DNA of 64,000 bases from an uncultured Acidimicrobiaceae bacterium (GCA_963838845.1 CAWISR010000003.1:1092322-1156321), one strand, 5' to 3'; counted from the stretch's first letter, positions 2,584 through 56,404 are shown. The notes: generated by a model from the letters alone, not told the origin. Program-made: numbers and translations.

Positions 2584-5407
2584 CGTCGGTGTAGGTCGTG
2601 TCGTTCACGGTGACGAAACTGAAGTTCTTCGCCGTCGTGCACAGTGGATCGTCCGCCGACGCCTGGGCGCAGAAGGTCTGTGGTTCGAACGTGATCCCAT
2701 CCAACGAGACGTACGTCGTCGGGCAAGCCGGCAAGTCGCCCGATCCGGCCGTCGGCTCGCATTCTGGCAGGTCGCCCCAGTTGATGGTCACCGTGAACGG
2801 AATCGTCGGCGAATCGGGCGACTTGTCGAAGACGACCGAGCGGTGCGTCGTGACCGGTGTTCCGTTCACCGTGAAGTTCTCCAAGTCGTTCGCGTTCGCA
2901 GTGAACTGCGTGTAGTTGACGCACCCGCTGTCATTGGGATTGTCAGAGGGGTAGGTGAGGCTCACGCCGACCGGCCCGGTTCCAAGGGTCGCCGTCCCCG
3001 TCTGGATCGCGGTGATCGTGTCCCCGGGACAGATCTGACCCGGCACCGTGGTGATCGAGGCGTCACAGTTGCCGGCGGAGGTCGAGCAGCTCGGCGGCGT
3101 GCCGGTCGCGGCGGAGAGCGTGCCGCTGATTCCCTCGTTCGCGGCGCTGAACGATGGTGCAGAAGCATTCACCGTCACCGTCTCTGCGGCTGGGTCTGTG
3201 ACCATCACCGAGCATGATCCCGACGTCGTCGTGCAAGACACCGCAGTGCCGAGGTTGTCGTTGCTCGCGTCGGTGAAGTAGGCGCTCCCGCTCGGGGAAG
3301 GCAACGAGAAGTCGACCGTCGCGCCGCTGTCGGTGATGTCGGTGTACGTCGAGCCGTTCGTCGTGTACTGCAGCTGTGCCGTCTCCGTGACGACCCCGCC
3401 CAAGGCGTTGCTCGCGGTCGTCTCGGGGGTGAGGGTGATGCCGCCTTCCGCCCAGATCTGCGTCGCGTCACACTTGCCCGTCATTCCGGGACAGTCCGAA
3501 GTCGTCATGTCCGTCGATCCGGTGAACATTCCCGAGATATTCTCCGCACTCGCGCCGAAGGTCGACGTGGCGTGGACGGTTGCTGTCTCGGGATTGGGGT
3601 CGTTGACGATCACCGAGCACGATCCGGACGATGTCGTACACGTCGTGGATACGCCGAGGTTGTCGTTGCTCGCGTCGGTGAAGTAGGCACCGCCGCTCGG
3701 GGAGGACAACGTGAAGTCGACCGTCGCGGCGCTGTCGGAAAGGGTCGTCCAGCTTCCACCGGGCAACATGTACTGCAACGTTGCCGCGATCGTGTCCGAG
3801 TTCCCGGTCGCGTCCGTCGCCGTCTCCGGCGACAAGGTGATGCGTGCCTCGGACGTCTGGACGTATTCGTTGCCACACGGGCCGGTCGTCGACGCGTAGT
3901 CGGGATTCGTCGAGGTATAGGTGTCCCGCCAGTAGTACGTGGCGAGGTCCGACGCGGTATAGGCCAACGACGTCGCGGAGAACGGACTTCCGTTCGACGC
4001 GTTCTCGGTGTCGGTGAACACCGGCGTCGTGACACAACTCGAGTCGTTCTTGTACAAGTTGAAGGTGATCGTCCCCGTCGGGTTACCGAACCCCGTGATC
4101 GGGGTGAGGGTCGCCGTGTCAGAGATCTCGAAGCCGACTGGGGCGGTCAGGCCGCCGTTTGTCGCCGAGGTCGCGGTGTCCGTGGCGTTGTTCGGGTCGG
4201 TCACCGTCGTCGTCGTGTGCATCGTCGGCGGTCCGGGCACGACGAACGTCGTGCAGGACTCGGCCCCGCCCGTTCCTCGCTGACCCGGGTCGACTTCAGG
4301 AGCGAGGGCCTGAATCCGATAGGTGTCACCGGGAATCAGCCCCGTTGTCGAGCCCTGGTTCGCGATCGTCATGCCCGCGAACGAGCTCGCGTTCCAGACG
4401 ACTTCGGATCCGTAGCCCTGGTTGAACTGTGTGGCGGGGTTGAACGGCGGCGTGTCCGCGTACGGTCCGAGATCCCAGTTGTTCGGCACCGAGGCGAACG
4501 TCGGCACGCCAAAGGAGGACGTGGCGTTGTCGGTCGCCCAGTCCCCGTAGATCGCGTTGATGAAGCTCGTTCCCGTGCCGCCCTGCTCCCAGTCACCGGC
4601 GTAGTAAGCGGGCGTGTTCGGCGTGAGCAGCGCGCCGTTCGGCTGGGTCAGGTTGGTGAGGTACAGCGCTGGATGGTCGGGGCGCGAGGAGGATCCCCCG
4701 AGGGTGAGCTCGGTCGCGGCCGGGTCTCCGATGCTCGGGTTTGTCGCTTCGCCGTAGGGCAACGCGGTGTCGACGACAATCGTCCCCGCCGGGAAGGCGT
4801 TGTGACCAGTACTGAACGCGTTGACGGTGATCGTCGTTGCGCCCTGAGCCGCCGGCTGCGCCACCGTGATGTGGTTGATCTCGAGCCCGCCCGAAATGAG
4901 GGTGAGCGAGTCGCCGGTCGCGTAGGCGACCGGAAGCGCGGCGACCGAGAGCGTCGTGTACTGCGTGTTCCTCTGCAGTCCGCTGCCGGTGAGCGTCGTT
5001 TGGCTCACTGCTTGCCATGCCGTCGGCACGGCAGAACTCGACTTCGTCTGCACGCCGAGGAGAAGGTCCGACTCGTCGTTCGCGAAGAGACCGATGTGAG
5101 CCGAAAGCCCGACTCCGTAGACCTTGAGTCCCTGGATGACGGACTGTTCCGGCATCCGAATCGACGAACCGTAAGAACCCTGAGACGTCTTAGTGGTCGG
5201 TTGGTAGTTCGCGTACGCCGAGGACGAAACCGGGTAGCCGCACGAGTCCGCGTTGGTCGGGGGTGGCAGATACGTTGCGGCCGATACGCCGTTTGCGACG
5301 AACGCGACGACCGGCGCGACGACGCCCGAAACCAACAACGCGCACATCGCCAAAGTGCGGCGCCGCGTCGGCCGGGCATGGACGCGACTGTCACCAAGGA
5401 ACCGCAC
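2531..5407 (-). CDS. Large secreted Thr/Ser-rich protein with tandem Ig-like (Big-type) modules; adhesin-like, function unknown
   Basis: The longest ORF is 2531-5563. The preferred start is the GTG at 5407, preceded by GGGGGAGG plus a 7-nt spacer. The signal-peptide-like N-terminus is VRFLGDSRVHARPTRRRTLAMCALLVSGVVAPVVAFVANGVSAA. Two roughly 134-aa modules are duplicated in tandem. The opposite-strand ORF (3572-5500) is Arg-rich shadow sequence. Confidence 0.8.
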   Translation of the reverse strand: MRFLGDSRVHARPTRRRTLAMCALLVSGVVAPVVAFVANGVSAATYLPPPTNADSCGYPVSSSAYANYQPTTKTSQGSYGSSIRMPEQSVIQGLKVYGVGLSAHIGLFANDESDLLLGVQTKSSSAVPTAWQAVSQTTLTGSGLQRNTQYTTLSVAALPVAYATGDSLTLISGGLEINHITVAQPAAQGATTITVNAFSTGHNAFPAGTIVVDTALPYGEATNPSIGDPAATELTLGGSSSRPDHPALYLTNLTQPNGALLTPNTPAYYAGDWEQGGTGTSFINAIYGDWATDNATSSFGVPTFASVPNNWDLGPYADTPPFNPATQFNQGYGSEVVWNASSFAGMTIANQGSTTGLIPGDTYRIQALAPEVDPGQRGTGGAESCTTFVVPGPPTMHTTTTVTDPNNATDTATSATNGGLTAPVGFEISDTATLTPITGFGNPTGTITFNLYKNDSSCVTTPVFTDTENASNGSPFSATSLAYTASDLATYYWRDTYTSTNPDYASTTGPCGNEYVQTSEARITLSPETATDATGNSDTIAATLQYMLPGGSWTTLSDSAATVDFTLSSPSGGAYFTDASNDNLGVSTTCTTSSGSCSVIVNDPNPETATVHATSTFGASAENISGMFTGSTDMTTSDCPGMTGKCDATQIWAEGGITLTPETTASNALGGVVTETAQLQYTTNGSTYTDITDSGATVDFSLPSPSGSAYFTDASNDNLGTAVSCTTTSGSCSVMVTDPAAETVTVNASAPSFSAANEGISGTLSAATGTPPSCSTSAGNCDASITTVPGQICPGDTITAIQTGTATLGTGPVGVSLTYPSDNPNDSGCVNYTQFTANANDLENFTVNGTPVTTHRSVVFDKSPDSPTIPFTVTINWGDLPECEPTAGSGDLPACPTTYVSLDGITFEPQTFCAQASADDPLCTTAKNFSFVTVNDTTYTDVTETWSGLTDWQLRDGG
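3040..3841 (-). repeat. Tandem duplication (period about 402-405 bp) encoding two Ig-like modules inside the secreted protein gene
   Basis: An identical 36-nt core, gccgaggttgtcgttgctcgcgtcggtgaagtaggc, occurs at 3248-3283 and 3653-3688. At protein level, ITLSPETATD...ATVDFTLSSPSGGAYFTDASNDNLG...GSCSVIV matches ITLTPETTAS...ATVDFSLPSPSGSAYFTDASNDNLG...GSCSVMV. Confidence 0.9.
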
Positions 5408-7451: not shown

Positions 7452-7497
7452 TGTTTGGCAGCGTACGCGCTAGCCACGTGCGCCGTCGGTCCGTACC

Positions 7498-8100
7498 GTG
7501 CGTCGCATGAATGAGGAACATGCGAAGTTCTGTTCGAGTCCGGAGTGGGTCGAGTGTCTGCGTACCGAGGTCGTCGCGCCGCTGGCGGCGGGCATCCTCG
7601 GCGGTGAGGTCCTCGAGCTCGGTCCGGGTCCCGGCGCGGCGACCGGATGGCTCGCCGAGCACGTCGAGCACCTGACGTGTCTCGAGTCCGACCCGAAAGC
7701 GGTGCTCGATCTCGCTGATCGGTTCACCGGTCGCAACGTCGACGTCGTCGAAGGAGACGCTTCGGCGATGGAGTTCCCCGACGCGTCGTTCGACACGGCT
7801 TGCTGCTTCACGATGCTCCACCACGTTCCGACGGCACGCGAACAGGACGAGCTGTTGTCCGAGACGCTGCGCGTGCTTCGCCCCGGCGGAGCGTTCATCG
7901 GCTCAGACAGCCTTCCGAGCGTCGACCTCCACCATTTTCACGTCGGGGACACATACAACCCGGTCGAACCGTCATCGTTCCTCACCCGTCTCCAAACCAC
8001 AGGTTTCTGCAGGATCACGCTGATGGTCGATTGGGACCTGCGCTTCATCGCGTACAAGCCCCAATCCGATAGTGACGCGTCCGAAGCGTGCCGATCCTGA
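7498..8100 (+). CDS. Class I SAM-dependent methyltransferase
   Basis: SAM-binding motif I is VLELGPGPGAATGWL; later motifs are ...DVVEGDASAMEFPDASFD... and LRPGGAF. An alternative ATG start lies at 7507. Confidence 0.75.
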   Translation: MRRMNEEHAKFCSSPEWVECLRTEVVAPLAAGILGGEVLELGPGPGAATGWLAEHVEHLTCLESDPKAVLDLADRFTGRNVDVVEGDASAMEFPDASFDTACCFTMLHHVPTAREQDELLSETLRVLRPGGAFIGSDSLPSVDLHHFHVGDTYNPVEPSSFLTRLQTTGFCRITLMVDWDLRFIAYKPQSDSDASEACRS

Positions 8101-8118
8101 TGTCGATGCCTGTCGAAC

Positions 8119-8637
8119 GTGAAAGAGAGGAGTGAAACGATGACGCTTCCCTACGAAGAGCCCCTTGTCGTCCGTCAGCCGGGCGAACGTGTGGTTCCCG
8201 AGCCGCCGCGCCGCGGTGAACCCGGCGGTGAACCCTGCCGAATCTGTGCCGGAGAAACGACGAAGCCAGTATGGGCGGACGACAACTGGACCCTCCATCC
8301 TCCAGTCGGCGGCAGCCTTCCGGGGGCCGTGTGGCTCGCGAGTCGTGAGCACGTCGATTCGTTTTCCGACCTGCCGCAGGTTCTCGCTGAGGACTTCGGC
8401 AAGGTCGCCGCGAGAGTCGAGCGCGCGATCCTCTCGCGAGGCGACGTGGGCCGCGTCCACCTCTATCGATGGGGTGACGGTGGCGCGCACTTCCATGTTT
8501 GGTTCATTCCGCGGCCCCTCGGGATGCTCGAGGCGAGCGGGATGATGCTGCCGATCTGGGAGGACGTCCTCCCGAACGTGTCGGACGACGAGCTACGCGA
8601 GGCGGCGGAGGACGTCGCGAGCGCGATGTCGCGGTAA
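8119..8637 (+). CDS. HIT-like (histidine-triad-related) protein
   Basis: A Cys pair (CRICAG) lies near the N-terminus. The triad-like motif is GGAHFHVWFIPRP, in which the third His is replaced by Trp. The assignment is tentative. Confidence 0.45.
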   Translation: MKERSETMTLPYEEPLVVRQPGERVVPEPPRRGEPGGEPCRICAGETTKPVWADDNWTLHPPVGGSLPGAVWLASREHVDSFSDLPQVLAEDFGKVAARVERAILSRGDVGRVHLYRWGDGGAHFHVWFIPRPLGMLEASGMMLPIWEDVLPNVSDDELREAAEDVASAMSR

Positions 8638-8975
8638 TGCGAGAAGGTGATCGCGGTGATGTTCAATCCTTCACTCTTCGGACGAGATATCGATCGGCGG
8701 ACACGGGAACTTCGTGCGTTGCCGGAGCCGAGGTTCGTCGAACGCCCGAGAAATCCTCGTCAAAGGCGCCCGCGAGCTCTGCGCGCTGCATTTGGGGTGC
8801 GGCTCATCGCCTGGGGTGAGTCACTCACTCGCGGTGTCTCTGATGCTGGGATGGGACGCATCGGTCGGCAGCCGTGCTGATCCTTCTCGTCGCGCCGCTT
8901 GCAAAGGGCTCGCGAGCGTGCCCCCTCTCTCGCTGGTTCCTCCTCGGAGGAGGCGGACCGGAAGAATCTGACGAT

Positions 8976-9419
8976 TTAGCTCGCGGATGGCTTTTGGTAG
9001 CGCGCGACCGAGAACGAGAGCAGCAGTGGGATATCGATCGCGAAGACGACCAGGGACAACGTGATCAGCACGAGCGTGGAGCCGCTCGTGTGATCGAAGA
9101 CGAAGATGAACTCGAGCATCCCGGCGATGACGAAGTACGCGAGGCTCGTCCACCGGCCGACCAGGAAGAACGATTTCCACGCGAAGGGACGAAATCTCGC
9201 GATGAGGATCACGTTCACGACGAGTACCGCACCGGCAGCGATGAGCAGTCCAAGCGAGGGTCCGATCGGCACGCGCCGCGGCAGACGCGCGGCGAGCAGG
9301 ATCCCGCCCACGATCACCAATCCCATCGACAACACACAGAGTTGAGCGACGGGCGGCAGTTTTCGTTCTTGCGCGTCCGCTGAGTGTTCGGCGAGGCGGG
9401 GGGCGGTTTCGGTGGTCAT
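8976..9419 (-). CDS. Small integral membrane protein (4 predicted TM), unknown function
   Basis: The start is the internal ATG (MTTETAPRLAEH...), followed by hydrophobic segments LCVLSMGLVIVGGILLAA, LGLLIAAGAVLVVNVILIA, SLAYFVIAGMLEFIFVF and LVLITLSLVVFAIDIPLLL. An ATGA overlap joins it to the upstream gene. The longer ORF (to 9839) is Arg-rich shadow. Confidence 0.6.
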   Translation of the reverse strand: MTTETAPRLAEHSADAQERKLPPVAQLCVLSMGLVIVGGILLAARLPRRVPIGPSLGLLIAAGAVLVVNVILIARFRPFAWKSFFLVGRWTSLAYFVIAGMLEFIFVFDHTSGSTLVLITLSLVVFAIDIPLLLSFSVARYQKPSAS

Positions 9420-10033
9420 GATGAGGCGAGCTTCGTCATGATGATCAGCGTCGCGACCTGCATCGCGCCGGTGACACCCGCGGTGTAGATGAACCGGCGC
9501 ATGAGACGGCCGATCAGCTCGCCATTCGGCTCCGACTTGCGCAATTCGAAGAGCACCGCGAGGTTTGCCGGCTCGAGAAGTCCAATTGCGATGACCGCCA
9601 TCACGCCGACGATGATCATCGATGCGACGACCCACCCGTGAACCGGGGACGTGCTGAGGATCGTGCCTTCGTGCCGAGCGAGTTGCCAACCTGCCGCGAG
9701 CGTCGCGATGACGAGCGTTGGCATCAACAGGATCATCTTCGGCATCAGTCGTTTCGAGAATTCGATACGCGCAGGGATCGACATTTGTCCGAGTATCGGT
9801 CCGATCACGAAGCCGAGGAACAGGTCGATGGCGGTCCAAAGTCCGCCACTCACAACGTGGAAGAAATCCAGCGCCCAGAGCCGGTTGGTGGCGATCGCCG
9901 CGACGAGTCCAGCGAGCGCGACCACGACGATCGGGATCGCGCGGACCGGCACGATCTGGAAATCGGCGCGAGGGTTCGCTTCCGCCTCGACTCGTCCCGG
10001 GGCGGCCCCGACGTCGATCAACGTTTCCGCCAT
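9416..10033 (-). CDS. Integral membrane protein (about 5-6 TM), unknown function
   Basis: MAETLIDVGAAPG... is followed by several hydrophobic helices (IPIVVVALAGLVAAIA, LWTAIDLFLGFVIGPIL, MILLMPTLVIATLAAGW, WVVASMIIVGVMAVIAIGLL, AGVTGAMQVATLIIM). The ATG at 10033 is preceded by a G-rich SD. Confidence 0.6.
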   Translation of the reverse strand: MAETLIDVGAAPGRVEAEANPRADFQIVPVRAIPIVVVALAGLVAAIATNRLWALDFFHVVSGGLWTAIDLFLGFVIGPILGQMSIPARIEFSKRLMPKMILLMPTLVIATLAAGWQLARHEGTILSTSPVHGWVVASMIIVGVMAVIAIGLLEPANLAVLFELRKSEPNGELIGRLMRRFIYTAGVTGAMQVATLIIMTKLASS

Positions 10034-10267
10034 TCGCCCCCCTATCAACCGACGACGCGATCTGCGGCGCAATCTAGTTATTGGCGCCGGACGGGTGAAG
10101 CTGAAGTTGCCGGCGTCGTCGTCGGTCGCATCGCGCCGGTTGAGCTGCGGCGCACGCTGTCGCCGCGTCGGCCACCGCTGGCAGGGTGCCTCGGATTCCC
10201 GTAAACTCGCCTACGCCCGCTGGCGCGCGCCCGCGGGCGACCCCCGTGGTCTTTCGGAAGGAAACGC

Positions 10268-36282: not shown

Positions 36283-38073
36283 TCATGGTCCGGTAGCCCG
36301 CCACGTGACGTCGAAGGAATCTCCGGACCCGTAGTCGGTAGGGGTATCGACCTCGTCAAGGACCGACGTGTCGGCGTTGTTCACCATGTCCATCCCGGTC
36401 GTGCTGTAGTCCGTGATGGGCTCGGCTGGGCTGCTGGCGGTTGCCGCATTCGCGTCCGAGAAGAAGGCTGTCCCAAAATTTGCCAGCTGAGGGAATGCGC
36501 AATTTGAGCAGGTCTCTGGCCGCTCGACGATCCATTCCGCTGACGACTCTGCTGCTCCAGAGAAATCGATCGTCGTCGAGAAGGACCCGCTCCAGTGCGA
36601 GTCATCGAGAGTGAGCGTCCATTGCTCTCCTGAGATACTGACGGAGGCAGTGATTTCGTCGCCAGGAGAGACCGGATACTGAGAGGGGCTCAGCTCGACC
36701 TCGTAACCGCCGTCGACGGCGGGATCGCCATACATTTCGTACCAGGCGTCGTATTGAGCCGTGCCGCCCCGACAGTCCGATTCCGTTCCGTCCTGCTCAA
36801 CCGTCGAACTTGCGAAGCCGTCGATCCCAATCCACTGGGACGAGTACTGGTCGGTGGTTACTCCAAGACAGGAGACCGAAGCCACGGTCCAGCTCGCGGT
36901 GACGTCTTCGAAGGTGGATGCTGCACACGGATCCGTGACCGCGTAACCGGACCAGTTCGTCGATCCCGCCGTCCCGACTGTCAATTCGGCGGCGTCTGTC
37001 GTCGTCGAGCCCAAACCGCTCGTGAACACCGCCTCGACTTCTTCGTTGTTGTCAGACGTGGTCGCCGAGAACGAGTAACAGGACGAAGTCTGCCCCGAGA
37101 CCGGTTGCCAGGTCGCCCCGTCATTAGTCGAGACTTGCCATTGAATTGCGGGCGTTGGGGATCCCGAAGCCTCTGCGGTGAACCAGGCGGTCGTGTTAGC
37201 GAGCACCTCCTCACTCTCGGGTTGTTCGATGATCGCCGGATCGATCGTCAGGGTCGCCGCGTCCGTCGTCGCCGCACCAGCCGAATTGGTGAAGATCGCT
37301 TCGAACTCGTCGCCATCTTCCGACGATGAGGCCGCGAACGAGTAGGAGGTCGATGTCGCACCGCTCACGGTGTTCCACTCGACGCCGCTGTCATCGGAGA
37401 TACGCCACTGGACGGACGGCTGCGGCGTGCCCGACGCACTGGCGGTGAAAGTCGCGGTCGTGCCATCAGGGACGGTCTGGTTCGAGGGCTGAAGTGTGAC
37501 GGTGGGTGCGCTCGTCGTTGAGGAGGGGGGTGGCGGGGGTGAGGGAGGAGGTAAAGGAGACGGAGTGGGTTGCGAGGTGACGAGGGCTGCGGGAGTCGGG
37601 CTACCGCGCTCGACCACTGATACGGTCCGGCGCCTCGAGGTCGTCTCGTTGATGGCGGACAGCTCGAAGCGGAACGAGCGAGGGGATGAGGATGGATTGT
37701 CCGGAAGAGTAATGAGGACGCGACGTGCCCCCGAGGAGCACGGAACGCGTTTCGAAAGATGCGGCTTCGCCGACGTGAAAAGGCAGGTTTGTGCGCCGTT
37801 CACCACGGCGAGAAGTTCGACTCGTCCTCCAGCCGAAGACAGCAGCGCAGGGATCGCCGAGAACTTCGAAATCTGAAGGGCTACAGCGCGCGGCGCAAGT
37901 CCGAGCGAAGCGACGATTCGATGCGTAGCAATGACGCGGGGGGAGCGGTCGGCAGTTTGGGGTCTCCCGCCGTGCGCATTTAACGCACCGAAGGTGGCAG
38001 TACTAAGTAGTGCGACCAATCCGAGGATCGGGCACAGGCGCGCGACTCGGCTCGTGAGCTTCGCGCATGTCAC
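36283..38073 (-). CDS. Secreted multidomain protein: signal peptide, N-terminal domain, Pro-rich linker, two Ig-like (I-set-type) domains and a C-terminal peptidase G1 (eqolisin / Peptidase_A4)-like domain
   Basis: The N-terminus reads MTCAKLTSRVARLCPILGLVALLSTATFGALNA and the linker PTPSPLPPPSPPPPPSS. The two repeats are TVTLQPSNQTVPDGTTATFTASASGTPQPSVQW... and IIEQPESEEVLANTTAWFTAEASGSPTPAIQW... The C-terminal domain carries STNWSGYAV...SSQWIGIDG...VEQDGTE...SAEWIVERPE, which are G1-family hallmarks. Confidence 0.75.
   Translation of the reverse strand: MTCAKLTSRVARLCPILGLVALLSTATFGALNAHGGRPQTADRSPRVIATHRIVASLGLAPRAVALQISKFSAIPALLSSAGGRVELLAVVNGAQTCLFTSAKPHLSKRVPCSSGARRVLITLPDNPSSSPRSFRFELSAINETTSRRRTVSVVERGSPTPAALVTSQPTPSPLPPPSPPPPPSSTTSAPTVTLQPSNQTVPDGTTATFTASASGTPQPSVQWRISDDSGVEWNTVSGATSTSYSFAASSSEDGDEFEAIFTNSAGAATTDAATLTIDPAIIEQPESEEVLANTTAWFTAEASGSPTPAIQWQVSTNDGATWQPVSGQTSSCYSFSATTSDNNEEVEAVFTSGLGSTTTDAAELTVGTAGSTNWSGYAVTDPCAASTFEDVTASWTVASVSCLGVTTDQYSSQWIGIDGFASSTVEQDGTESDCRGGTAQYDAWYEMYGDPAVDGGYEVELSPSQYPVSPGDEITASVSISGEQWTLTLDDSHWSGSFSTTIDFSGAAESSAEWIVERPETCSNCAFPQLANFGTAFFSDANAATASSPAEPITDYSTTGMDMVNNADTSVLDEVDTPTDYGSGDSFDVTWRATGP
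36976..37506 (-). repeat. Two tandem Ig-like domain coding repeats (about 88 aa each)
   Basis: Residues about 190-277 and 279-366 of the ORF are parallel: T(A/W)TFTA(S/E)ASG(T/S)P(Q/T)P(S/A)(V/I)QW...G..W..VSG.TSS.YSF.A...E(F/V)EA(I/V)FT...G..TTDAA.LT(I/V). Confidence 0.8.
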
Positions 38074-49055: not shown

Positions 49056-50054
49056 ATGATGCGCACCGAGGCTTCGGTTACTTCGATTTCGTGGATCCCT
49101 TCAGAGGCGATCAGCGGCGTCGCGGTGCGCGCGCCCTTCGACGTCGGGATCACGCACTACGACAACGCACCACCCGAGGTCGTGACCGACCTCGAGGAAC
49201 TCCGCGTCGCGGACCGCTTCCGCTTCGCGAACGAGTTGCGCGGATTCGTCGAGACCCAGAACGGCCGCATCGTCGACTACGGGCAATCGGGCGGTGGCGT
49301 GATCGGTTCGACGACGGTGCGGCTCGGCGGACTGCAGAAGACCTTCCAGGCGGTGCCGCTTCCCGACATCCGTCCCGATGCGGTCGTCACCGACCGCAGC
49401 GTCACCTTCGTCCAGACGGCCGGCGGACGGACAGGGATCCCCGCTCCGCGGCGTGTCCGACGCGCCCCGTTCGTGCAGTTGTCGGCGCCGCTCGTGTGGA
49501 CGACGCTGGCGCTCACGATCTTCGTCGACGGGCGCACTCGCATCGAGCTGCGCGGTGCGAGCCCGTTCCCGCGGCATTGGATCTATGGGCCGGACGGCAA
49601 GCTTGAGCAGAAGTCCGGTCTCATCGACTTCTCGACGTGGTACCGGCGCGCGTTCGGCGTCCACAGTCCGTGGGGCGACCGCGATTCGCGGGCGCTCACG
49701 ACCGCGATCGAGACCGCGCTCGAGCGCGAGCTTTCGACCGTGCTGATGAAAAGCGGCGAACGTCCGCGCGTCGCGACGGTTGCCGAGGGCTCGACGATCC
49801 TCGAACAAGGGGAGTCGGGGAACGAGCTGTTCTTGGTCCTCGACGGCGTCGTGCGCGTCGAGGTCGACGGCAAGCCACTCGTCGAATGCGGCCCAGGATC
49901 GGTCCACGGCGAGCGCGCCGCGCTCGAGGGCGGCAAGCGCACCGCGACGGTGCGTGCCGTGACGAAGTGCAAAGTTGCCTTCGCCTCGGCCGATCAGTTC
50001 GACAAGGACGTTCTCACAGAGCTCGCGAGCGGGCACCGACGGGAACTCGACTGA
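49056..50054 (+). CDS. Protein with unknown N-terminal domain (about 230 aa) and C-terminal cyclic-nucleotide-binding domain
   Basis: The C-terminal region is GSTILEQGESGNELFLVLDGVVRVEVDGKPLVECGPGSVHGERAALEGGKRTATVRAVTKCKVAF. It contains the phosphate-binding-cassette pattern G-E-x-A ... R-T-A. I did not recognise the N-terminal domain. Confidence 0.8.
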   Translation: MMRTEASVTSISWIPSEAISGVAVRAPFDVGITHYDNAPPEVVTDLEELRVADRFRFANELRGFVETQNGRIVDYGQSGGGVIGSTTVRLGGLQKTFQAVPLPDIRPDAVVTDRSVTFVQTAGGRTGIPAPRRVRRAPFVQLSAPLVWTTLALTIFVDGRTRIELRGASPFPRHWIYGPDGKLEQKSGLIDFSTWYRRAFGVHSPWGDRDSRALTTAIETALERELSTVLMKSGERPRVATVAEGSTILEQGESGNELFLVLDGVVRVEVDGKPLVECGPGSVHGERAALEGGKRTATVRAVTKCKVAFASADQFDKDVLTELASGHRRELD

Positions 50055-50055
50055 C

Positions 50056-51429
50056 ATGCCGACGCTCGAGGACGAACGAGCGGTCGCGGGAGGTGATCGT
50101 GGCGTCGGGGGGCCGACGATCACCGTCTTGCTCGCAGACGACAACCTGATTGTCCGAGAGGGCGTGAAAGCGCTGTTGGTACTGGAGCGCGACTTCGAAC
50201 TCGTTGGCACTGCCGGTGACTACGACGAGCTCGTCGCGGCGTCCGAGCGACTCGCCCCGCAGGTCGTCATCACCGACATCCGGATGCCGCCGAACTTTCA
50301 ACAGGAAGGCATCGACGCCGCGCACGAGATCCGCAAGCGCCACCCTGGCACCGGGATCGTCGTGCTCTCCCAGTTCGACGACCCCGAGTATGCGATCTCT
50401 CTCCTCGCCGAGGGCTCCGCGGGCTACGCGTACCTGTTGAAGGACCGCGTCGCCGAGGGTGACCAGCTCGCCCGGGCGGTGCGCACCGTCGCAACAGGGG
50501 GTTCGGTGCTCGACCCGGCGATCGTCGAGTCGATGGTCCATCCGGTCACCGACTCGGGAGGACTCGACGAGTCCGACGAGCAGCTGCTGAAGTTCGTCGC
50601 CGAGGGCCGACCGATCAAGGCGATCGCCGTCGCGACGAACACGACTCCCGCTGCGACCGCGGACGCCGTCGAGCGGCTGTTCCTGCGCCTCGCGAAGGAC
50701 GCGAGCAGCGGCAGCAAGCAGTCGCTTCGTCAGCTGCGCAAGCTGCACGAGGCGATCGTCGATCGCGAAGAACAAGGCGAATCGCTGAGCCGCCTACTGC
50801 CCGGTGGCGTCGCGCAAATGCTGCGCGACGAAGGATGCCGTCCCGGCGAGACGGTCCAGCTCACCGTCAGCGTCTTGATGTCGGACATCCGCGGGTACTC
50901 GACGATCGCCGAGCGCGCCGATCCGAGCGCGCTTGCCGGGCAGCTGAACGTGCATCGCGGCGAGATGAACCGAGCGGTCATCGGAGAAGGGGGCACCGTG
51001 ATGCAGTTCGTCGGCGACGCGGTGATGGCGGTCTTCGGGGCGCCGGTTCCGATCCCGGATCACCCGGACAGGGCGCTGCGCGCCGCGCTGGCGATGCACC
51101 GCGCGCAGGAGGCGGTGAACGTTCGCTGGCGCGATGAGGGTCTTGCCGAGTTCGGCCTCGGCATCGGGATCACGACCGGCGAGGTCGCCGCGGCATTGCT
51201 CGGATCGGACGAGCGCCTCGAGTACACGGTCGTCGGCGACACCGTGAACCTCGCTCAGCGGATCCAGCAGTGGGCAGAACCGGGAGAGACCGTCCTTTCC
51301 GACGCGACGTACCAGTCGTTGCTCGACCAGATCGCGGCGGAGCCGATCGCGCCGTCGACGGTGAAGGGGCGCTCAGGTTTGGTCGGCGCGTGGAAGGTGG
51401 CGGCACAAATGGCGGGAGTGGACCGATGA
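50056..51429 (+). CDS. NarL-type response regulator (REC plus LuxR-like HTH remnant) fused to a class III adenylate/guanylate cyclase domain
   Basis: REC: VLLADDNLIVREG...VVITDIRMPP...IVVLSQF...YLLKDR. HTH-like: DEQLLKFVAEGRPIKAIAVATNTTPAATADAVERLFLRLA. Cyclase: VLMSDIRGYST...GGTVMQFVGDAVMAVFG...EYTVVGDTVNLAQRIQ. The ATG lies 1 nt after the upstream stop. Confidence 0.85.
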   Translation: MPTLEDERAVAGGDRGVGGPTITVLLADDNLIVREGVKALLVLERDFELVGTAGDYDELVAASERLAPQVVITDIRMPPNFQQEGIDAAHEIRKRHPGTGIVVLSQFDDPEYAISLLAEGSAGYAYLLKDRVAEGDQLARAVRTVATGGSVLDPAIVESMVHPVTDSGGLDESDEQLLKFVAEGRPIKAIAVATNTTPAATADAVERLFLRLAKDASSGSKQSLRQLRKLHEAIVDREEQGESLSRLLPGGVAQMLRDEGCRPGETVQLTVSVLMSDIRGYSTIAERADPSALAGQLNVHRGEMNRAVIGEGGTVMQFVGDAVMAVFGAPVPIPDHPDRALRAALAMHRAQEAVNVRWRDEGLAEFGLGIGITTGEVAAALLGSDERLEYTVVGDTVNLAQRIQQWAEPGETVLSDATYQSLLDQIAAEPIAPSTVKGRSGLVGAWKVAAQMAGVDR

Positions 51430-52154
51430 GCGTGATGCAGGCACGTGGCGTGCGCAAGACGTATGAGACCGAGGGTGCCCCGGTGCGCGCGCTGCGGGGA
51501 GTCGACCTTGCGATGGGCGAAGGGGAGTTCGTCGCGATCATGGGACCGTCGGGCTGTGGCAAGTCGACGCTGTTGAACCTCATCGCAGGTCTCGACGTGC
51601 CAACCGATGGTGAGATCGTCGTCGCCGGAGAGGCGCTGTCCGGCATGGACGAGGACGATCTCGCGTTGATGCGCCGTCGCCACATCGGCATCGTCTTTCA
51701 GTTCTTCAACCTCTTGGAAGGGATGACCGTCCTCGAGAACGCGACGCTCCCCGCCGTCGTCGCCGGCCTGCGCCGTCGGCAGGCGGAGAGCAGGGCGCGT
51801 GATCTCCTCGACCTCCTCGGTCTCGCCGACAAGGCGCGCGCCGCTCCCGGACTGCTCTCAGGCGGGGAGCGCCAGCGCCTCGCCATCGCCCGCGCGCTCG
51901 CGAACGCGCCGACTCTGCTGCTCGCCGACGAGCCGACCGGCGCGCTCGACTCCGAAGGCGGATTCGAAGTTCTCGAGCTGTTCCGGCGGCTGCACGCCGG
52001 TGGCCAGTCAATCCTTCTCGTCACCCACGACGAGCACGTCGCCGCGCCGGCGTCGCGCCTCGTCCATATGCGCGACGGCCGCATCGAATCCGACGTCGAA
52101 CAGCGCGTGGAGCTCGCCGTCGAAGCGGAGATCGACGTCGCGATCTACGAATGA
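51426..52154 (+). CDS. ABC transporter ATP-binding protein (MacB/LolD/FtsE-like) with no adjacent permease gene
   Basis: Walker A GPSGCGKST, signature LSGGERQRLAIARAL, Walker B LLLADEPTGALD, H-loop LLVTHD. ATGA overlaps are present at both its 5' and 3' ends. Confidence 0.9.
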   Translation: MSVMQARGVRKTYETEGAPVRALRGVDLAMGEGEFVAIMGPSGCGKSTLLNLIAGLDVPTDGEIVVAGEALSGMDEDDLALMRRRHIGIVFQFFNLLEGMTVLENATLPAVVAGLRRRQAESRARDLLDLLGLADKARAAPGLLSGGERQRLAIARALANAPTLLLADEPTGALDSEGGFEVLELFRRLHAGGQSILLVTHDEHVAAPASRLVHMRDGRIESDVEQRVELAVEAEIDVAIYE

Positions 52155-54370
52155 TGGACGCCGCCCCGATCGTCGTCAGCCAGCTCGGTGTGCGCCGCGA
52201 ATCGGCGGCCCCGCCGGCGTCGCGTCGGCGCGTCGCGGTCGGGCCGACGTTGCTGCTCGCCGCGGTGGCGCTCGGGGGGGCCATCGCCGCGCCCGTGGTC
52301 GACCACCGCGGCGACCTTCTCACTCAAGTGGTCCGGGCGGTCGTCGTCGGGTGCTTCGCGATCGCCGGCGGATTCGCCCTCATGCTCCGGCCGAAGGAGC
52401 GCCAGCCGCTGCTCGTGCTCTCGGCGACGTTCGTCGCCGCTGCCGCGGTCGTCTCGGCGGCCCTCATTCAAGCCCACGCCCACCACGCCGCCGTCGCCGG
52501 GGGTCTCGTCGCGGTGGCGCGCCTTGTCGCGCCGGTGGCGCTCGCGATCTTGCCGATGTCGACGATGCACGTCCTGCTCGGCCTGCCGGACGGCACCTGC
52601 CGGCTGAGCCGCTTCGCGATCGGCGGCGGCTATCTCGTGGCGATCGGCGTCGGGCTCGGAATGTGGAGCGACAGGCCGGTGCTGCCGCTGTGGCCGGTCG
52701 GGGTCGAGCTCCTCGTCGCCGTGCCCATCGGGCTCTACGGCGCCAGGCGCCGCTATCGGCGCTCGGCAGGGCTCGAGCGCCAGCGGATGCAGTGGTTCGG
52801 GTGGGCGGTGTCCGTCGGGGTCGAGATCGTCGTCCTCGCCGAGGCGTTGCGCCTTTTTTGGGGCTGGCCGACGCGCGAAGCGCTCGTCGTCACGGTCGCC
52901 GCCGTGCCGATCGCGATCGCCGTCGCGGCGGGCGCGACGACCGTCATCGCGACGCGCATCGACCGCCTGCTCGCCTGGTCGGTCTCGGTCGCCGGTCTGA
53001 CCGGCGTCGTCGTCGTCGTGTACCTCATCGTCGTCTTGGGCATCGGACACGCGCCGACGAAACAGGAGCGGACGCTGCTCATCCTCTCGATGATTGCCGC
53101 GGCGGCGTCAGCGTTGATCTACGGGCCGGCGCGCACGCGCCTGAAGTCTTACGCGAACCGCATCGTCTACGGCGAGCGCGAGGCGCCCGACACCGTGCTA
53201 CGCACCTTCGCGACGCGCCTCACCCGCGCCATGCCGCTTGAGGAACTCTTGTTGCAGGTCGTCGAGTCGCTGCGCAAAACGCTTGCGCTCACCTCGGCCG
53301 AGATCTGGACCGGATCCGGCGGTGTGCTGGAACGCGCCGTGTCGGTGCCGGACGCACCCGGGGCGCGGATCGTGTTGAGTGCGAGCGAAGAGTCGGTGGT
53401 CGCCCGCGCCGGCGTCACGGGCAATGCGTGGCTTGAGATCTGGATGCCGCAGATCCTGAAGGGCCACGAAGGGTTTGCGATCCGCGTCGCGCCGACCACG
53501 CACTCGGGCCGCGTCCTCGGACTCGTCGTCGCGGCGCGCAAATCCGACGGCGAGCGCTTCAGCGAGGGCGACGACACGACGCTCGTCGAGCTCGCCCGGC
53601 AGCTCGGCCTCGCTCTCCACAACGTCGAGCTCGACTCGGCACTGCAGGAGTCACTCGACGAGGTGCGGCGACAAGCCGACGAACTGCGCGCCTCGAGAGC
53701 GCGGATCGTTGCCGCGTCGGATGCGGCGCGCCGCCAGATCGAGCGGAACCTCCACGACGGCGCGCAGCAGCACCTCGTCGCGCTCGCCGTCAACGTCCGT
53801 TTGGCGCGCCAGCTCGTCGAGTCCGACCCTGCGGGTTCTGTCGAGATCCTCGACGCACTCGGCGGTGAGCTGCAGGACGCGGTGCAGGAGCTGCGTGCGC
53901 TCGCGCACGGCATCTACCCGCCGCTGCTCGTCGACCGCGGCGTCGAAGAGGCGTTGCGGTCCGCGGCCTCGCGCGCCGCCATCCCAACCGAGGTCGAGGC
54001 CGAAGGTCTACGGCGCTATTCGCCGGAGGAGGAGGCGGCCGTCTACTTCTGCTGCATGGAGGCGCTGCAGAATGCCGGCAAACACGCGGGCGAGGGAGCG
54101 ACCGCCACCGTGCGAGTCCACGAACGCGAGGGGACGCTCTTTTTCGATGTCGTCGACAACGGCGCCGGATTCGACATGAACGGCGTGAAGGGGCACGGCG
54201 CGGGCTTCGTCAACATGCGCGACCGCGTCGGCGCGATCGGCGGCACGGTCTCGGTGCAGTCCTCGCCCGGGAAGGGAACGAAGATCTCCGGGCACTTGCC
54301 GCTGAGCGGGACGAACGAGCCGTCGACGAACGGTGCGACTGGCGTGGAGCGCTCGGCCCTCAGGACCTGA
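52151..54370 (+). CDS. Polytopic (about 10 TM) sensor histidine kinase with GAF-like domain, HisKA_3 and HATPase_c domains
   Basis: The N-terminal 330 aa are almost entirely hydrophobic helices. The central region resembles GAF (...LLLQVVESLRKTLALTSAEIW...GLVVAARK...). The H-box is RQIERNLHDGAQQHLVAL. ATPase motifs are EALQNAGKHAG..., DNGAGF and GHGAGFVNMRDRV. Confidence 0.88.
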   Translation: MMDAAPIVVSQLGVRRESAAPPASRRRVAVGPTLLLAAVALGGAIAAPVVDHRGDLLTQVVRAVVVGCFAIAGGFALMLRPKERQPLLVLSATFVAAAAVVSAALIQAHAHHAAVAGGLVAVARLVAPVALAILPMSTMHVLLGLPDGTCRLSRFAIGGGYLVAIGVGLGMWSDRPVLPLWPVGVELLVAVPIGLYGARRRYRRSAGLERQRMQWFGWAVSVGVEIVVLAEALRLFWGWPTREALVVTVAAVPIAIAVAAGATTVIATRIDRLLAWSVSVAGLTGVVVVVYLIVVLGIGHAPTKQERTLLILSMIAAAASALIYGPARTRLKSYANRIVYGEREAPDTVLRTFATRLTRAMPLEELLLQVVESLRKTLALTSAEIWTGSGGVLERAVSVPDAPGARIVLSASEESVVARAGVTGNAWLEIWMPQILKGHEGFAIRVAPTTHSGRVLGLVVAARKSDGERFSEGDDTTLVELARQLGLALHNVELDSALQESLDEVRRQADELRASRARIVAASDAARRQIERNLHDGAQQHLVALAVNVRLARQLVESDPAGSVEILDALGGELQDAVQELRALAHGIYPPLLVDRGVEEALRSAASRAAIPTEVEAEGLRRYSPEEEAAVYFCCMEALQNAGKHAGEGATATVRVHEREGTLFFDVVDNGAGFDMNGVKGHGAGFVNMRDRVGAIGGTVSVQSSPGKGTKISGHLPLSGTNEPSTNGATGVERSALRT

Positions 54371-54800
54371 AGCTGAGCGGCAGTTTCCCGGCCCAGCCGC
54401 GCGTCAGCACGTCCGGGCCGAACTGTTCTTTGTGCACGTACGCCACGGCGCCGCTCGTCGCGGCATCGGCGGGGAGGCTCTCGACGTCGTAGGTCGACAG
54501 CAAGAGGACCCGCACCGACGGGTGCTGCTCGACGATGCGCCGTGTCGCCTCGATGCCGCCCATGCCGTCCATGTTGATATCCATCAGGACGAGCTGCGGC
54601 TCGAGCTCTGATGCGAGGGCGACGGCTTCCTCGCCCGAGCGTGCCTCTCCGACCACAGTGAACCCGGGGGTCGCGCGCACGACCGCCTTGGCGGCCAAGC
54701 GGAACGGAGCCTGGTCGTCGACGATCAGCACACCGACTGAATCGTCAGCCACCTCATCATCATCGCAGGTCGGTGGCGGTGAGCGGACGCTTGCCAGCAC
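54360..54800 (-). CDS. Stand-alone receiver-domain response regulator (no output domain)
   Basis: VLIVDDQAPFRLAAKAVV...QLVLMDINMDGMGGIEATRRI...VLLLSTY...AYVHKEQ. Its 3' end overlaps the kinase 3' end by 11 nt (convergent). The start is uncertain (ATG 54800 or a downstream GTG). Confidence 0.8.
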   Translation of the reverse strand: MLASVRSPPPTCDDDEVADDSVGVLIVDDQAPFRLAAKAVVRATPGFTVVGEARSGEEAVALASELEPQLVLMDINMDGMGGIEATRRIVEQHPSVRVLLLSTYDVESLPADAATSGAVAYVHKEQFGPDVLTRGWAGKLPLSFRS

Positions 54801-54832: not shown

Positions 54833-55501
54833 CTAATCGGCGCGATCGGAGAGAAAAAGGAGTACGGCCTTCACCCGTCGGTGGACGTCGAGTTCCTGGG
54901 ACAACCCGAGCTTGGAGAAGATCGAGTTGATGTGCTTTTCGACCGCTCGCTCAGAAAGCACGAGCGCGGCGGCGACAGCGGCGTTGTTCTTGCCGGTCGC
55001 CATCTCGGCGAGGATCTCTTTTTCGCGCGGGGTCAAGAGCCGCATCGGCGAGTTCTGGGCGCGAGAGCGGGCGGCGACGAGCGCGTCGACGACGACCGGG
55101 TCGATCACCGACCCCCCGGCGGCCGTCTGTCTGATCGCATCGGCGAGCTGTTTGATGTCCGAGACCCGTTCCTTCAGCAGGTAGGCGCGACCCTTCGATC
55201 CGTGTTCCAAGAACGCGAGCGCGTAGCTCGGTTCCGCGTACTGGCTCAAGACGACGACGCCGACGTCGGGATTGCGCGTGCGGAACTCGTTCGCCGCACG
55301 GATGCCTTCGTCGGTGCCGGTTGGCGGCATGCGTATGTCGGTGACAACGACGTCGGGCTTCTCCGCATCGACGCTTTCGAGCAGCGAGTCGTAGTCGGCG
55401 CACGTCGCGACGAGTTCGAGTTCATCTTCGGAGGCGATCAGTCGCGCGACACCCTCGCGGACCAGGTAGTCGTCCTCGGCGAGGACGACCCGTATCGACA
55501 T
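54833..55501 (-). CDS. NarL/LuxR-family DNA-binding response regulator
   Basis: MSIRVVLAEDDYLVREGV...VVVTDIRMPPTGTDEGI...VVVLSQYAEPSYALAFLEHGSKGRAYLLKERV...LTPREKEILAEMATGKNNAAVAAALVLSERAVEKHINSIFSKLGL. It is clearly paralogous to the REC part of 50056-51429. Confidence 0.92.
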   Translation of the reverse strand: MSIRVVLAEDDYLVREGVARLIASEDELELVATCADYDSLLESVDAEKPDVVVTDIRMPPTGTDEGIRAANEFRTRNPDVGVVVLSQYAEPSYALAFLEHGSKGRAYLLKERVSDIKQLADAIRQTAAGGSVIDPVVVDALVAARSRAQNSPMRLLTPREKEILAEMATGKNNAAVAAALVLSERAVEKHINSIFSKLGLSQELDVHRRVKAVLLFLSDRAD

Positions 55502-55570: not shown

Positions 55571-56404
55571 TCAATCGAGCGTGATCAGCTGCCCCTGGGT
55601 CGCGGCGCGGACGGGCAGCGGCGCGTCCGTCAACTCCTTCACGATGGCGTCAACTTCGTCATCGGTGCGCGAGGGATCGTGGTGGAACAGAACGAGCTCG
55701 CGGGCCTTCGCCGCGGCGGCCAGGCCGACGGCGTACGGGTAGGCGGAGTGGCCGTAGTGCGCCTTCGTCGGCAGTTCCTCCGCCGTGTACTGCGAGTCGT
55801 GCAAGACGAGGTCGCAACCCTCGGTGAGCGCGAGCGCGGTGTCGTGGTACTCGCCAAAGCCGTCCGGGCCGGGACCGAGGTCGGTCGGGCAATGGTCGGA
55901 GAGGTAGGCGAGCGTGGAGTGGCCGTCCGAGACCCGATACCCGAAGGTCCGCCCGCCTCCGTGGGGGATGTCGAGTGCGAGGACCGAAAGCCCTTCGAGC
56001 TCGTGTTCCCCCGGTTCGAGCGGACGGAAGCTCCACGACCCCCTGAGGCCGCGGGGCGTGATCGGGAAGTGGGGCGGCGACATGAAGCGCTCGAAGATCT
56101 CTTCGCCGTGGGTTTGCGCCGGCAAGTAGGCGTCGACGCGGGCGTCTTCGCGGTCCGCCGAGGTGAAGAACGGCAGGCCCTGGGTGTGATCCCAGTGCAG
56201 ATGGCCGAAGAGGATCGAGCCGCGGAAGGGCTCACCCGCAAAGACGGCGTCGGCGGCGCGAATGCCCGTGCCGGCGTCGATGATGAGCGTCGGTGTGGCG
56301 CCATCTGAAGAGATCCCGACACAGGAGGTGTGGCCCCCGTAGCGGACGAAATCGGCGCCCGGGGTGGGCGTCGACCCCCGCGTGCCGAACAGATGGACGC
56401 GCAT
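55571..56404 (-). CDS. MBL-fold metallo-hydrolase (paralog 2) with canonical HLHWDH motif
   Basis: [29 protein letters not shown]...[15 protein letters not shown]...VLHDSQY...GHSAY...LFHHDP. It lies 69 nt upstream of the NarL regulator on the same strand. Confidence 0.85.

Follow-up and report, generated by a model that had tools for sequence, protein, structure and literature searches.

In a 64,000-nucleotide stretch of DNA from an uncultured Acidimicrobiaceae bacterium (GCA_963838845.1, CAWISR010000003.1:1092322-1156321; the whole stretch is hereafter the window), the gene for an ATP-binding cassette (ABC) ATPase of the MacB/LolD/FtsE type overlaps the start of a gene for a histidine kinase with ten transmembrane (TM) helices, and no FtsX-type permease is encoded in the window. 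A first-pass annotation of the sequence had proposed that the membrane domain of the kinase takes the place of the permease. Its assignment of the ATPase class and its finding of tight coupling between the two genes stood up to analysis, and its analogy to the Bce systems, in which this class of ATPase feeds a partner kinase, is reasonable, but the notion of a 10-TM domain acting instead of a permease was not supported. In relatives the ATPase is normally paired with FtsX-type permeases, encoded close by or at other sites. The membrane domain of the kinase therefore probably works with the transporter and does not stand in for its permease, and we regard an FtsX-type permease, not the kinase, as the probable membrane partner of the ATPase. 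For the system as a whole we lean slightly towards a Bce-like sensory module of transporter and kinase, in which the ATPase may serve permeases in trans. The ATPase and the kinase are laid out as follows.

51426..52154, plus strand: type VII (MacB/LolD/FtsE/YbbA/BceA-like) ABC ATPase, 242 residues (PF00005, E 1.2e-35)
52151..52154, plus strand: ATGA overlap of the ATPase stop and the kinase start, gaATGAtgg (read in the sequence)
52151..54370, plus strand: sensor histidine kinase, 739 residues (Pfam and NCBIfam domains)
52238..53131, plus strand: 10-TM membrane domain of the kinase, residues 30-327 (hydropathy and AlphaFold2 model)
53237..53623, plus strand: GAF domain of the kinase, residues 363-491 (PF01590, E 4.6e-5)
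53729..54307, plus strand: HisKA_3 (residues 527-591; PF07730, E 1.2e-13) and HATPase_c (residues 630-719; PF02518, E 1e-12) domains of the kinase

The top NCBIfam models for the ATPase were MacB, LolD, FtsE, DevA, DarD, and YbbA (E 1e-65 to 6e-53), and because it reaches the equivalog cut-off of no NCBIfam model it belongs to none of the named subfamilies. Its closest PDB chains are the nucleotide-binding domains of MacB, LolD, PsdA, BceA, YbbA, and FtsE, all from FtsX-fold transporters, in agreement with the earlier statement that ATPases of this type normally partner with an FtsX-like permease. All canonical motifs are present, as had been claimed: Walker A (GPSGCGKST, residues 40-48), Q-loop (VFQFF), signature (LSGGERQR), Walker B (LLLADEPT, with the catalytic E169), D-loop (GALD), and H-loop (VTHD). 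Across 66 orthologues these motifs were invariant except for variants of the signature (LSGGQ in 61 and LSGGE in 5), of Walker B (LLLADEPT in 58 and LVLADEPT in 8), and of the H-loop (VTHD in 64 and other sequences in 2). The protein has no extra domain, and its C-terminal tail of ∼20 residues varies in relatives, with tblastn alignments stopping near residues 220-225. When compared with the three loci that form the permease-less clade of the window (L007-L009), the ratio of nonsynonymous to synonymous substitution rates (dN/dS) was 0.05-0.11 for the ATPase and ∼0.19 for the kinase membrane domain. Neighboring loci with and without a local permease (L019/L031 and L046/L012) encode ATPases that are 97-98% identical. 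These results identify the protein as a conventional nucleotide-binding subunit of the type VII ABC class, subject to strong purifying selection; given this selection and the unchanged sequence and motifs, we conclude that the ATPase is functional and that nothing points to a change of partner.

To describe the coupling of the ATPase and kinase genes across relatives, loci from 6 contigs obtained by protein search and from 80 species-level genomes were mapped by tblastn with the window proteins. The relatives are metagenome-assembled genomes (MAGs), some with long-read frameshifts, and the genome scan was keyed on the peptide RMQWFGW, so that more divergent members were missed. Approximately 85 Acidimicrobiia MAG loci keep the same cassette, consisting of genes for a cyclic nucleoside monophosphate (cNMP)-binding protein, a response-regulator receiver fused to a cyclase (REC-cyclase), the ATPase, and the kinase, with a convergent gene for a response regulator. 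The ATPase gene lies immediately upstream of the kinase gene in 65 of the 70 related loci that have the ATPase, and the 4-nt stop/start overlap noted in the first-pass annotation is retained in 44 of 62 of these. On the basis of this adjacency and overlap, the coupling of ATPase and kinase is ancient and under selection rather than due to chance, and the overlapping start and stop suggest that the two proteins are made together. The earlier reading had missed that the pair sits within a larger packed unit, with a second ATGA overlap at 51426-51429.

Many genes in L001-L006 and in other MFD and ERZ long-read contigs, P0058 and P0150 included, are split or falsely fused by frameshifts, and gene calls and domain architectures from the MFD and ERZ contigs need to be checked at the DNA level. 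One apparent FtsX-kinase fusion (P0058, 1461 residues) was considered as Rosetta-stone evidence and rejected, as its junction is Arg/Pro-rich and out of frame in the manner typical of a long-read frameshift; P0150 is alike.

The absence of a permease from the window, as stated in the first-pass annotation, was borne out by each of the searches made. No significant match in the 64 kb was obtained by tblastn with the permeases of related loci, the best match of a family FtsX hidden Markov model (built from 27 permeases) to all six-frame open reading frames (ORFs) of at least 50 residues in the window had an E value of 0.12, and the Pfam domains of the neighboring genes included no such protein. 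The related loci gave a different picture. Among 85 non-redundant loci, 68 could be assessed for a permease and the contigs of the other 17 were too short, and in 43 of the 68 a permease gene was found in or near the cassette, in 1-4 copies, encoding a YbbP-like tandem-FtsX protein of ∼800 residues. FtsX lies directly upstream of the kinase gene and on the same strand in 14 loci, of which L004, L051, L052, L062, and L083 have the order ATPase-FtsX-kinase and L063, L079, and L080 carry up to four tandem FtsX copies upstream of the kinase gene. It lies directly downstream (ATPase-kinase-FtsX) in 8 loci and elsewhere within ∼10 kb in 21, and 25 loci have no FtsX gene within ∼10 kb. In L013, L014, L028, and L036 the permease gene is located between the regulator gene and a gene for a metallo-β-lactamase (MBL)-fold protein; these two genes are adjacent in the window and the slot is empty. 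The orthologous ATPases of the family are 73-95% identical, and at the level of the family a cognate permease is thus for the most part linked to this clade, which is largely the outcome that the first-pass annotation had named as refuting its proposal. A second ATPase of the cassette or MacB type was present in none of the census loci, even in those with up to four FtsX genes; the occurrence of several clustered permeases with a single ATPase gene implies one ATPase for several permeases.

Up to four tandem-FtsX paralogues of ∼800 residues surround a single ATPase gene in L063, L079, L080 (∼10 kb upstream of the kinase gene), L036, L055, and L062. The extracytoplasmic domains differ between clustered paralogues and contain conserved cysteines.

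The permeases of the relatives contain two FtsX Pfam stretches and two extracytoplasmic domains of ∼210-225 residues. An AlphaFold2 model of one of them (P0179, 94% identical to the L014 copy) had a mean predicted local distance difference test score (pLDDT) of 75.4 and showed 8 long TM helices plus two short helices of low confidence. Its best PDB match was Escherichia coli YbbP (9ge6_A, E 3.7e-20, full-length TM-score 0.54); LolC/E, MacB, and BceB came next, and HrtB (7w7a and 7w78) was also among the matches. The features of a YbbAP-type permease, namely ∼800 residues, a duplicated FtsX domain, and two extracytoplasmic domains, are thus found in the permease of the relatives and not in the window.

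The distribution of the permease genes was compared with a neighbor-joining tree of the 66 ATPase orthologues, rooted at the midpoint. The deep branches carry an in-operon permease, in the order ATPase-permease(s)-kinase or ATPase-kinase-permease. The permease-less loci are derived, arose more than once, and are interleaved with permease-bearing loci; they comprise a clade of ∼20 species, the window together with L007-L009, and scattered single species. The permease family is far larger than the cassette family (>1000 matches at E <1e-30), and its members are usually orphans, with no ABC ATPase within 1.5 kb in 25 of 27 metagenome loci that were found with two FtsX peptides and were flanked by at least 1.5 kb of sequence in both directions. 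In two permease loci, L087 and L088, the flanking 10 kb in both directions encode no MacB-type ATPase. In one cassette-bearing genome an orphan permease (P0347) lies ∼184 kb from the cassette (L010) on the same 2.71-Mb contig, with no ATPase nearby. A permease-less ATPase is thus matched by ATPase-less permeases elsewhere, which is the pattern of a shared ATPase, and from these sequences we infer that the cassette ATPase may be the one used by the orphan permeases.

The membrane domain of the kinase was examined for any resemblance to a permease. Hydropathy and an AlphaFold2 model (pLDDT 71.6) agree on ten helices, spanning residues 30-327 and connected by loops of 3-7 residues, in line with the earlier description of about ten hydrophobic helices with minimal loops, and the GAF, HisKA_3, and HATPase_c domains all follow residue 360. 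The domain had no match in Pfam, NCBIfam, or the PDB, placing it outside any described family, and it contains no internal 5+5 repeat. Comparison with a clean FtsX alignment by hhalign gave a probability of 0.5%. A Foldseek search with the kinase model returned a best E value of 0.02, TM-scores of <0.35, and no type VII ABC match, whereas the same type of search with the permease model readily retrieved type VII ABC folds. Homologues of the domain are present in Acidimicrobiales MAGs according to a protein-database search, in which the best match was only 62% identical and the L007-L009 proteins did not appear among the matches. A profile search of 1.8 billion representatives gave 21,040 matches, mostly generic HisKA_3 kinases; the profile included the kinase core, and the search is uninformative on remote relatives of the TM domain. 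The NCBIfam label "MctS/MctR" obtained for the kinase and receiver was rejected, given that the similarity is limited to the cores and that the name is that of a rhizobial system.

Within the membrane domain, the loops LPDG, RYRRSxGxERQRMQWFGW, and RIDR, all predicted to be cytoplasmic, stand out as the best conserved, with mean majority frequencies of 0.89 for LPDG and 0.84 for RYRRSxGxERQRMQWF; the invariance of RMQWFGW in L007-L086 arises by construction, as this peptide was the pattern of the genome scan. The predicted TM6-TM7 loop forms a helical hairpin extension and not a membrane-parallel coupling helix, a weak observation at a pLDDT of ∼70-80. The same 10-TM domain, with the same conserved motifs, occurs in relatives with in-operon permeases. 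Because it is present with or without an adjacent permease, the domain did not arise as a permease substitute.

The remaining genes of the cassette and its conserved neighbor are given below.

49056..50054, plus strand: cNMP-binding protein, 332 residues, first gene of the operon (PF00027 at residues 242-316, E 8e-16)
50056..51429, plus strand: REC-cyclase, a response-regulator receiver fused to a class III adenylate/guanylate cyclase (PF00072 and PF00211)
51426..51429, plus strand: ATGA overlap of the cyclase stop and the ATPase start (read in the sequence)
54360..54800 (maximal ORF), minus strand: stand-alone receiver, a single-domain response regulator (PF00072, E 3e-22)
54833..55501, minus strand: NarL/LuxR-type response regulator, REC + GerE (PF00072 and PF00196)
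55571..56404, minus strand: MBL-fold (Lactamase_B_2) protein, a conserved neighbor (Pfam)

A gap of 1 nt separates the stop of the cNMP-binding gene from the ATG of the REC-cyclase gene (start read in the sequence), and the two genes adjoin in most related loci. A Pfam search with the N-terminal ∼235 residues of the cNMP-binding protein gave no match. The REC-cyclase has a dN/dS of 0.08-0.12, and its REC domain is 40-52% identical to that of the NarL-type regulator of the cassette. The gene for the stand-alone receiver converges on that for the kinase, with an overlap of 11 nt at the 3′ end of the latter; the receiver gene is also found in L001, L003, L004, and L006 and is the third receiver of the cassette. 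The NarL-type regulator gene is convergent in nearly all related loci. With a kinase carrying HisKA_3 and HATPase_c and a REC + GerE regulator nearby, the pair has the make-up of a NarL-class two-component system, and the regulator is likely the cognate transcription factor of the kinase. The similarity between the REC domains of the cyclase and the regulator suggests that one kinase may feed both transcription and cNMP synthesis, and a feedback loop might be completed through the GAF domain of the kinase itself.

Clade II (∼20 species; for example L003 at 4134-5087, L053, and L020) carries an extra gene, encoding ∼317 residues with no Pfam match, inserted between the cNMP-binding and REC-cyclase genes. 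Upstream and downstream of the cassette the window extends for 49 kb and 8.5 kb, where Pfam indicates only housekeeping genes, glmS, alr, tsaE/B/D, rimI, and groEL among them; no Rfam family or tRNA was detected in the window. Beside glmS, in a patch of lower GC content (0.62-0.63 compared with ∼0.68), a gene at 36283-38073 on the minus strand encodes a 596-residue protein that joins Peptidase_A4 and immunoglobulin I-set domains, an unusual pairing for a bacterium. A second stretch of lower GC content (0.63), at 7470-10200, contains no ORF passing a codon-position GC filter and no Rfam or tRNA match.

In the Bce-like module towards which we lean, the permease genes of the window lineage would have become separated from the cassette, and the ATPase would energize, as a shared subunit acting in trans, one or more permeases encoded elsewhere. 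The kinase, with its minimal outside loops, would read the conformational cycling of the ATPase-permease complex or complexes, as BceS reads BceAB, and would phosphorylate the three receivers of the cassette, namely the NarL-type transcription factor, the stand-alone REC protein, and the REC-cyclase. Cyclic nucleotide made by the REC-cyclase could then target the cNMP-binding protein of the same operon and, possibly, the kinase GAF domain. Several observations weigh against this reading. No permease gene is found in the 49 kb upstream or the 8.5 kb downstream of the cassette, and in the closest relatives (L007-L009) the flanking 10 kb in each direction contain none. Short outside loops are the only defining feature that the kinase shares with BceS, and the linkage of the ATPase gene to the kinase gene is closer than its linkage to any permease gene, an unusual situation for a simple transporter subunit. 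Some related metagenome contigs carry further MacB-type ATPases, one of which, 51% identical, lies near an orphan permease in L127, so that the orphan permeases may depend on another ATPase. Furthermore, both censuses are biased by their search peptides (RMQWFGW for the cassettes and two FtsX peptides for the permeases).

Three other explanations were weighed against these data. The two-component system might do no more than control expression of an ABC exporter whose ATPase gene shares the operon by happenstance, with the kinase sensing a signal of its own through the 10-TM or GAF domain, whatever the activity of the transporter. Two-component systems beside ABC exporters that they merely regulate are common, and a large membrane domain with a GAF domain could bind ligands, unlike the sensor-less BceS (PMC11009047); however, the placement of the ATPase inside the signaling operon with the permeases scattered is the opposite of a regulated target operon, and simple control of expression would sit poorly with a stop/start overlap kept in 44 of 62 loci. 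We consider this explanation unlikely. Still less of the evidence fits the ATPase having been recruited as a soluble regulator, acting on the cyclase or on the GAF and dimerization/histidine phosphotransfer part of the kinase and no longer binding any membrane domain. Its probable co-translation between cyclase and kinase and the lack of a local permease agree with such a role, yet all of its motifs are identical to those of permease-adjacent orthologues, it has gained no domain, and its tail of ∼20 residues varies among relatives, so that we hold this role to be highly improbable.

The remaining explanation retains the substance of the original proposal, with the 10-TM domain, in permease-less lineages such as that of the window, as a pseudo-permease that docks the ATPase dimer so that ATP directly drives or gates the kinase with no FtsX protein involved. 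Such an arrangement would account for the lack of a permease in 64 kb, for the conserved overlap and an ATPase-kinase adjacency tighter than that of ATPase and permease, and for the ∼25 species in which the ATPase is intact and under strong selection and no permease gene lies within ∼10 kb; in addition, conservation of the membrane domain peaks in predicted cytoplasmic loops, the site at which docking of a nucleotide-binding domain would be expected. The same domain and loops, however, occur in relatives with in-operon permeases, neither profile-profile nor fold searches detect any similarity to FtsX, and the presence or absence of a local permease makes no difference to the ATPase sequence. 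The order also has many orphan members of the linked permease family, including one far from the cassette in a cassette-bearing genome, and the hairpin predicted for the TM6-TM7 loop is, weakly (pLDDT ∼70-80), a further point against a coupling helix. A pseudo-permease is, in our judgment, decidedly unlikely. A related and similarly doubtful idea is that the 10-TM domain binds the ATPase directly through the LPDG and RYRRSxGxERQRMQWFGW loops, which would yield either a permease-independent, ATP-gated kinase, in lineages such as that of the window, or a hub sensor; in the latter version the kinase would follow the duty cycle of a single ATPase common to several scattered orphan permeases.

The Bce modules are among the closest known parallels to the transporter-kinase reading that we favor. 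In these systems the kinase is controlled by the ATP-driven cycling of the transporter, and signaling depends on ATP hydrolysis; the permease spans the membrane 10 times and carries a single large extracytoplasmic domain, placed between TM7 and TM8, and the kinase is an intramembrane-sensing protein with two TM helices and a short linker, encoded at the same locus as the transporter and co-evolving with it (PMC11009047). Like the Firmicutes BceAB, BceS, and BceR proteins, the cassette family links a type VII ATPase and an FtsX-fold permease to a kinase with almost no extracytoplasmic loops, BceA is among the solved relatives of the ATPase (E ∼5e-45), and BceB is among the fold matches of the permease. 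The differences are extensive. The cassette kinase has 10 TM helices and a GAF domain rather than two TM helices, it combines HisKA_3 with a NarL-type regulator rather than HisKA with an OmpR-type regulator, and the permease of the family has two extracytoplasmic domains, as in YbbP, rather than one between TM7 and TM8. Furthermore, the permease genes are multiple and often unlinked, being linked in about two thirds of the loci and not in the window, and translational coupling joins the ATPase gene to the kinase gene, not to a permease gene. The cassette also adds REC-cyclase, cNMP-binding, and stand-alone REC outputs, and it belongs to Actinomycetota (Acidimicrobiia) instead of Firmicutes.

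E. coli YbbAP provides a second comparison, with YbbP being the best structural match of the family permease and YbbA a relative of the ATPase. YbbP has ∼800 residues and two periplasmic domains (Porter/Sabre), and it binds two copies of YbbA via two coupling helices (PMC12646458). Unlike the present system, ybbA and ybbP are adjacent, have no link to a kinase, and are associated with a partner hydrolase, TesA; in the window a permease is absent and the ATPase is part of a signaling operon, and the family permease is only ∼13% identical to YbbP. Two-component systems that regulate FtsX-type exporters, HssRS-HrtBA among them, are likewise associated with a MacB-type ATPase and an FtsX permease, and HrtB is among the fold matches of the family permease, but in those cases the exporter genes have a separate operon and sensing is done by a domain of the kinase itself. 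Sharing of one ATPase is known from MsiK and MsmX, each a single ATPase serving several permease sets that lack an ATPase of their own. An actinobacterial precedent for a shared ATPase is MceG of mycobacteria (PMC9947336). Those ATPases, however, belong to importer or Mce systems with no coupling to a kinase, and sharing of a MacB-type ATPase in the present case is suggested by gene counts only. Literature searches found no description of this cassette.

Since the organisms are uncultured soil and peat Acidimicrobiia, the immediate impact of these results is limited. They do carry a caution, in that an ATPase that appears to be "permease-less" in one window may match "ATPase-less" permeases elsewhere in the genome. 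To our knowledge, transporter-coupled ("flux-sensing") kinases are established only for the Bce modules of Firmicutes. If the Bce-like reading is correct, Actinomycetota would provide a further case of the principle, built from very different components: a GAF/HisKA_3 kinase with 10 TM helices, YbbP-like permeases encoded for the most part as orphans, an ATPase gene kept with the kinase and not with a permease, and a cyclic-nucleotide branch. Direct binding of the kinase and the ATPase, in either version and if true, would be a new coupling of an ABC motor to a two-component system. If a single ATPase does serve several dispersed permeases, a kinase linked to it could register the combined load on an entire group of envelope machines.

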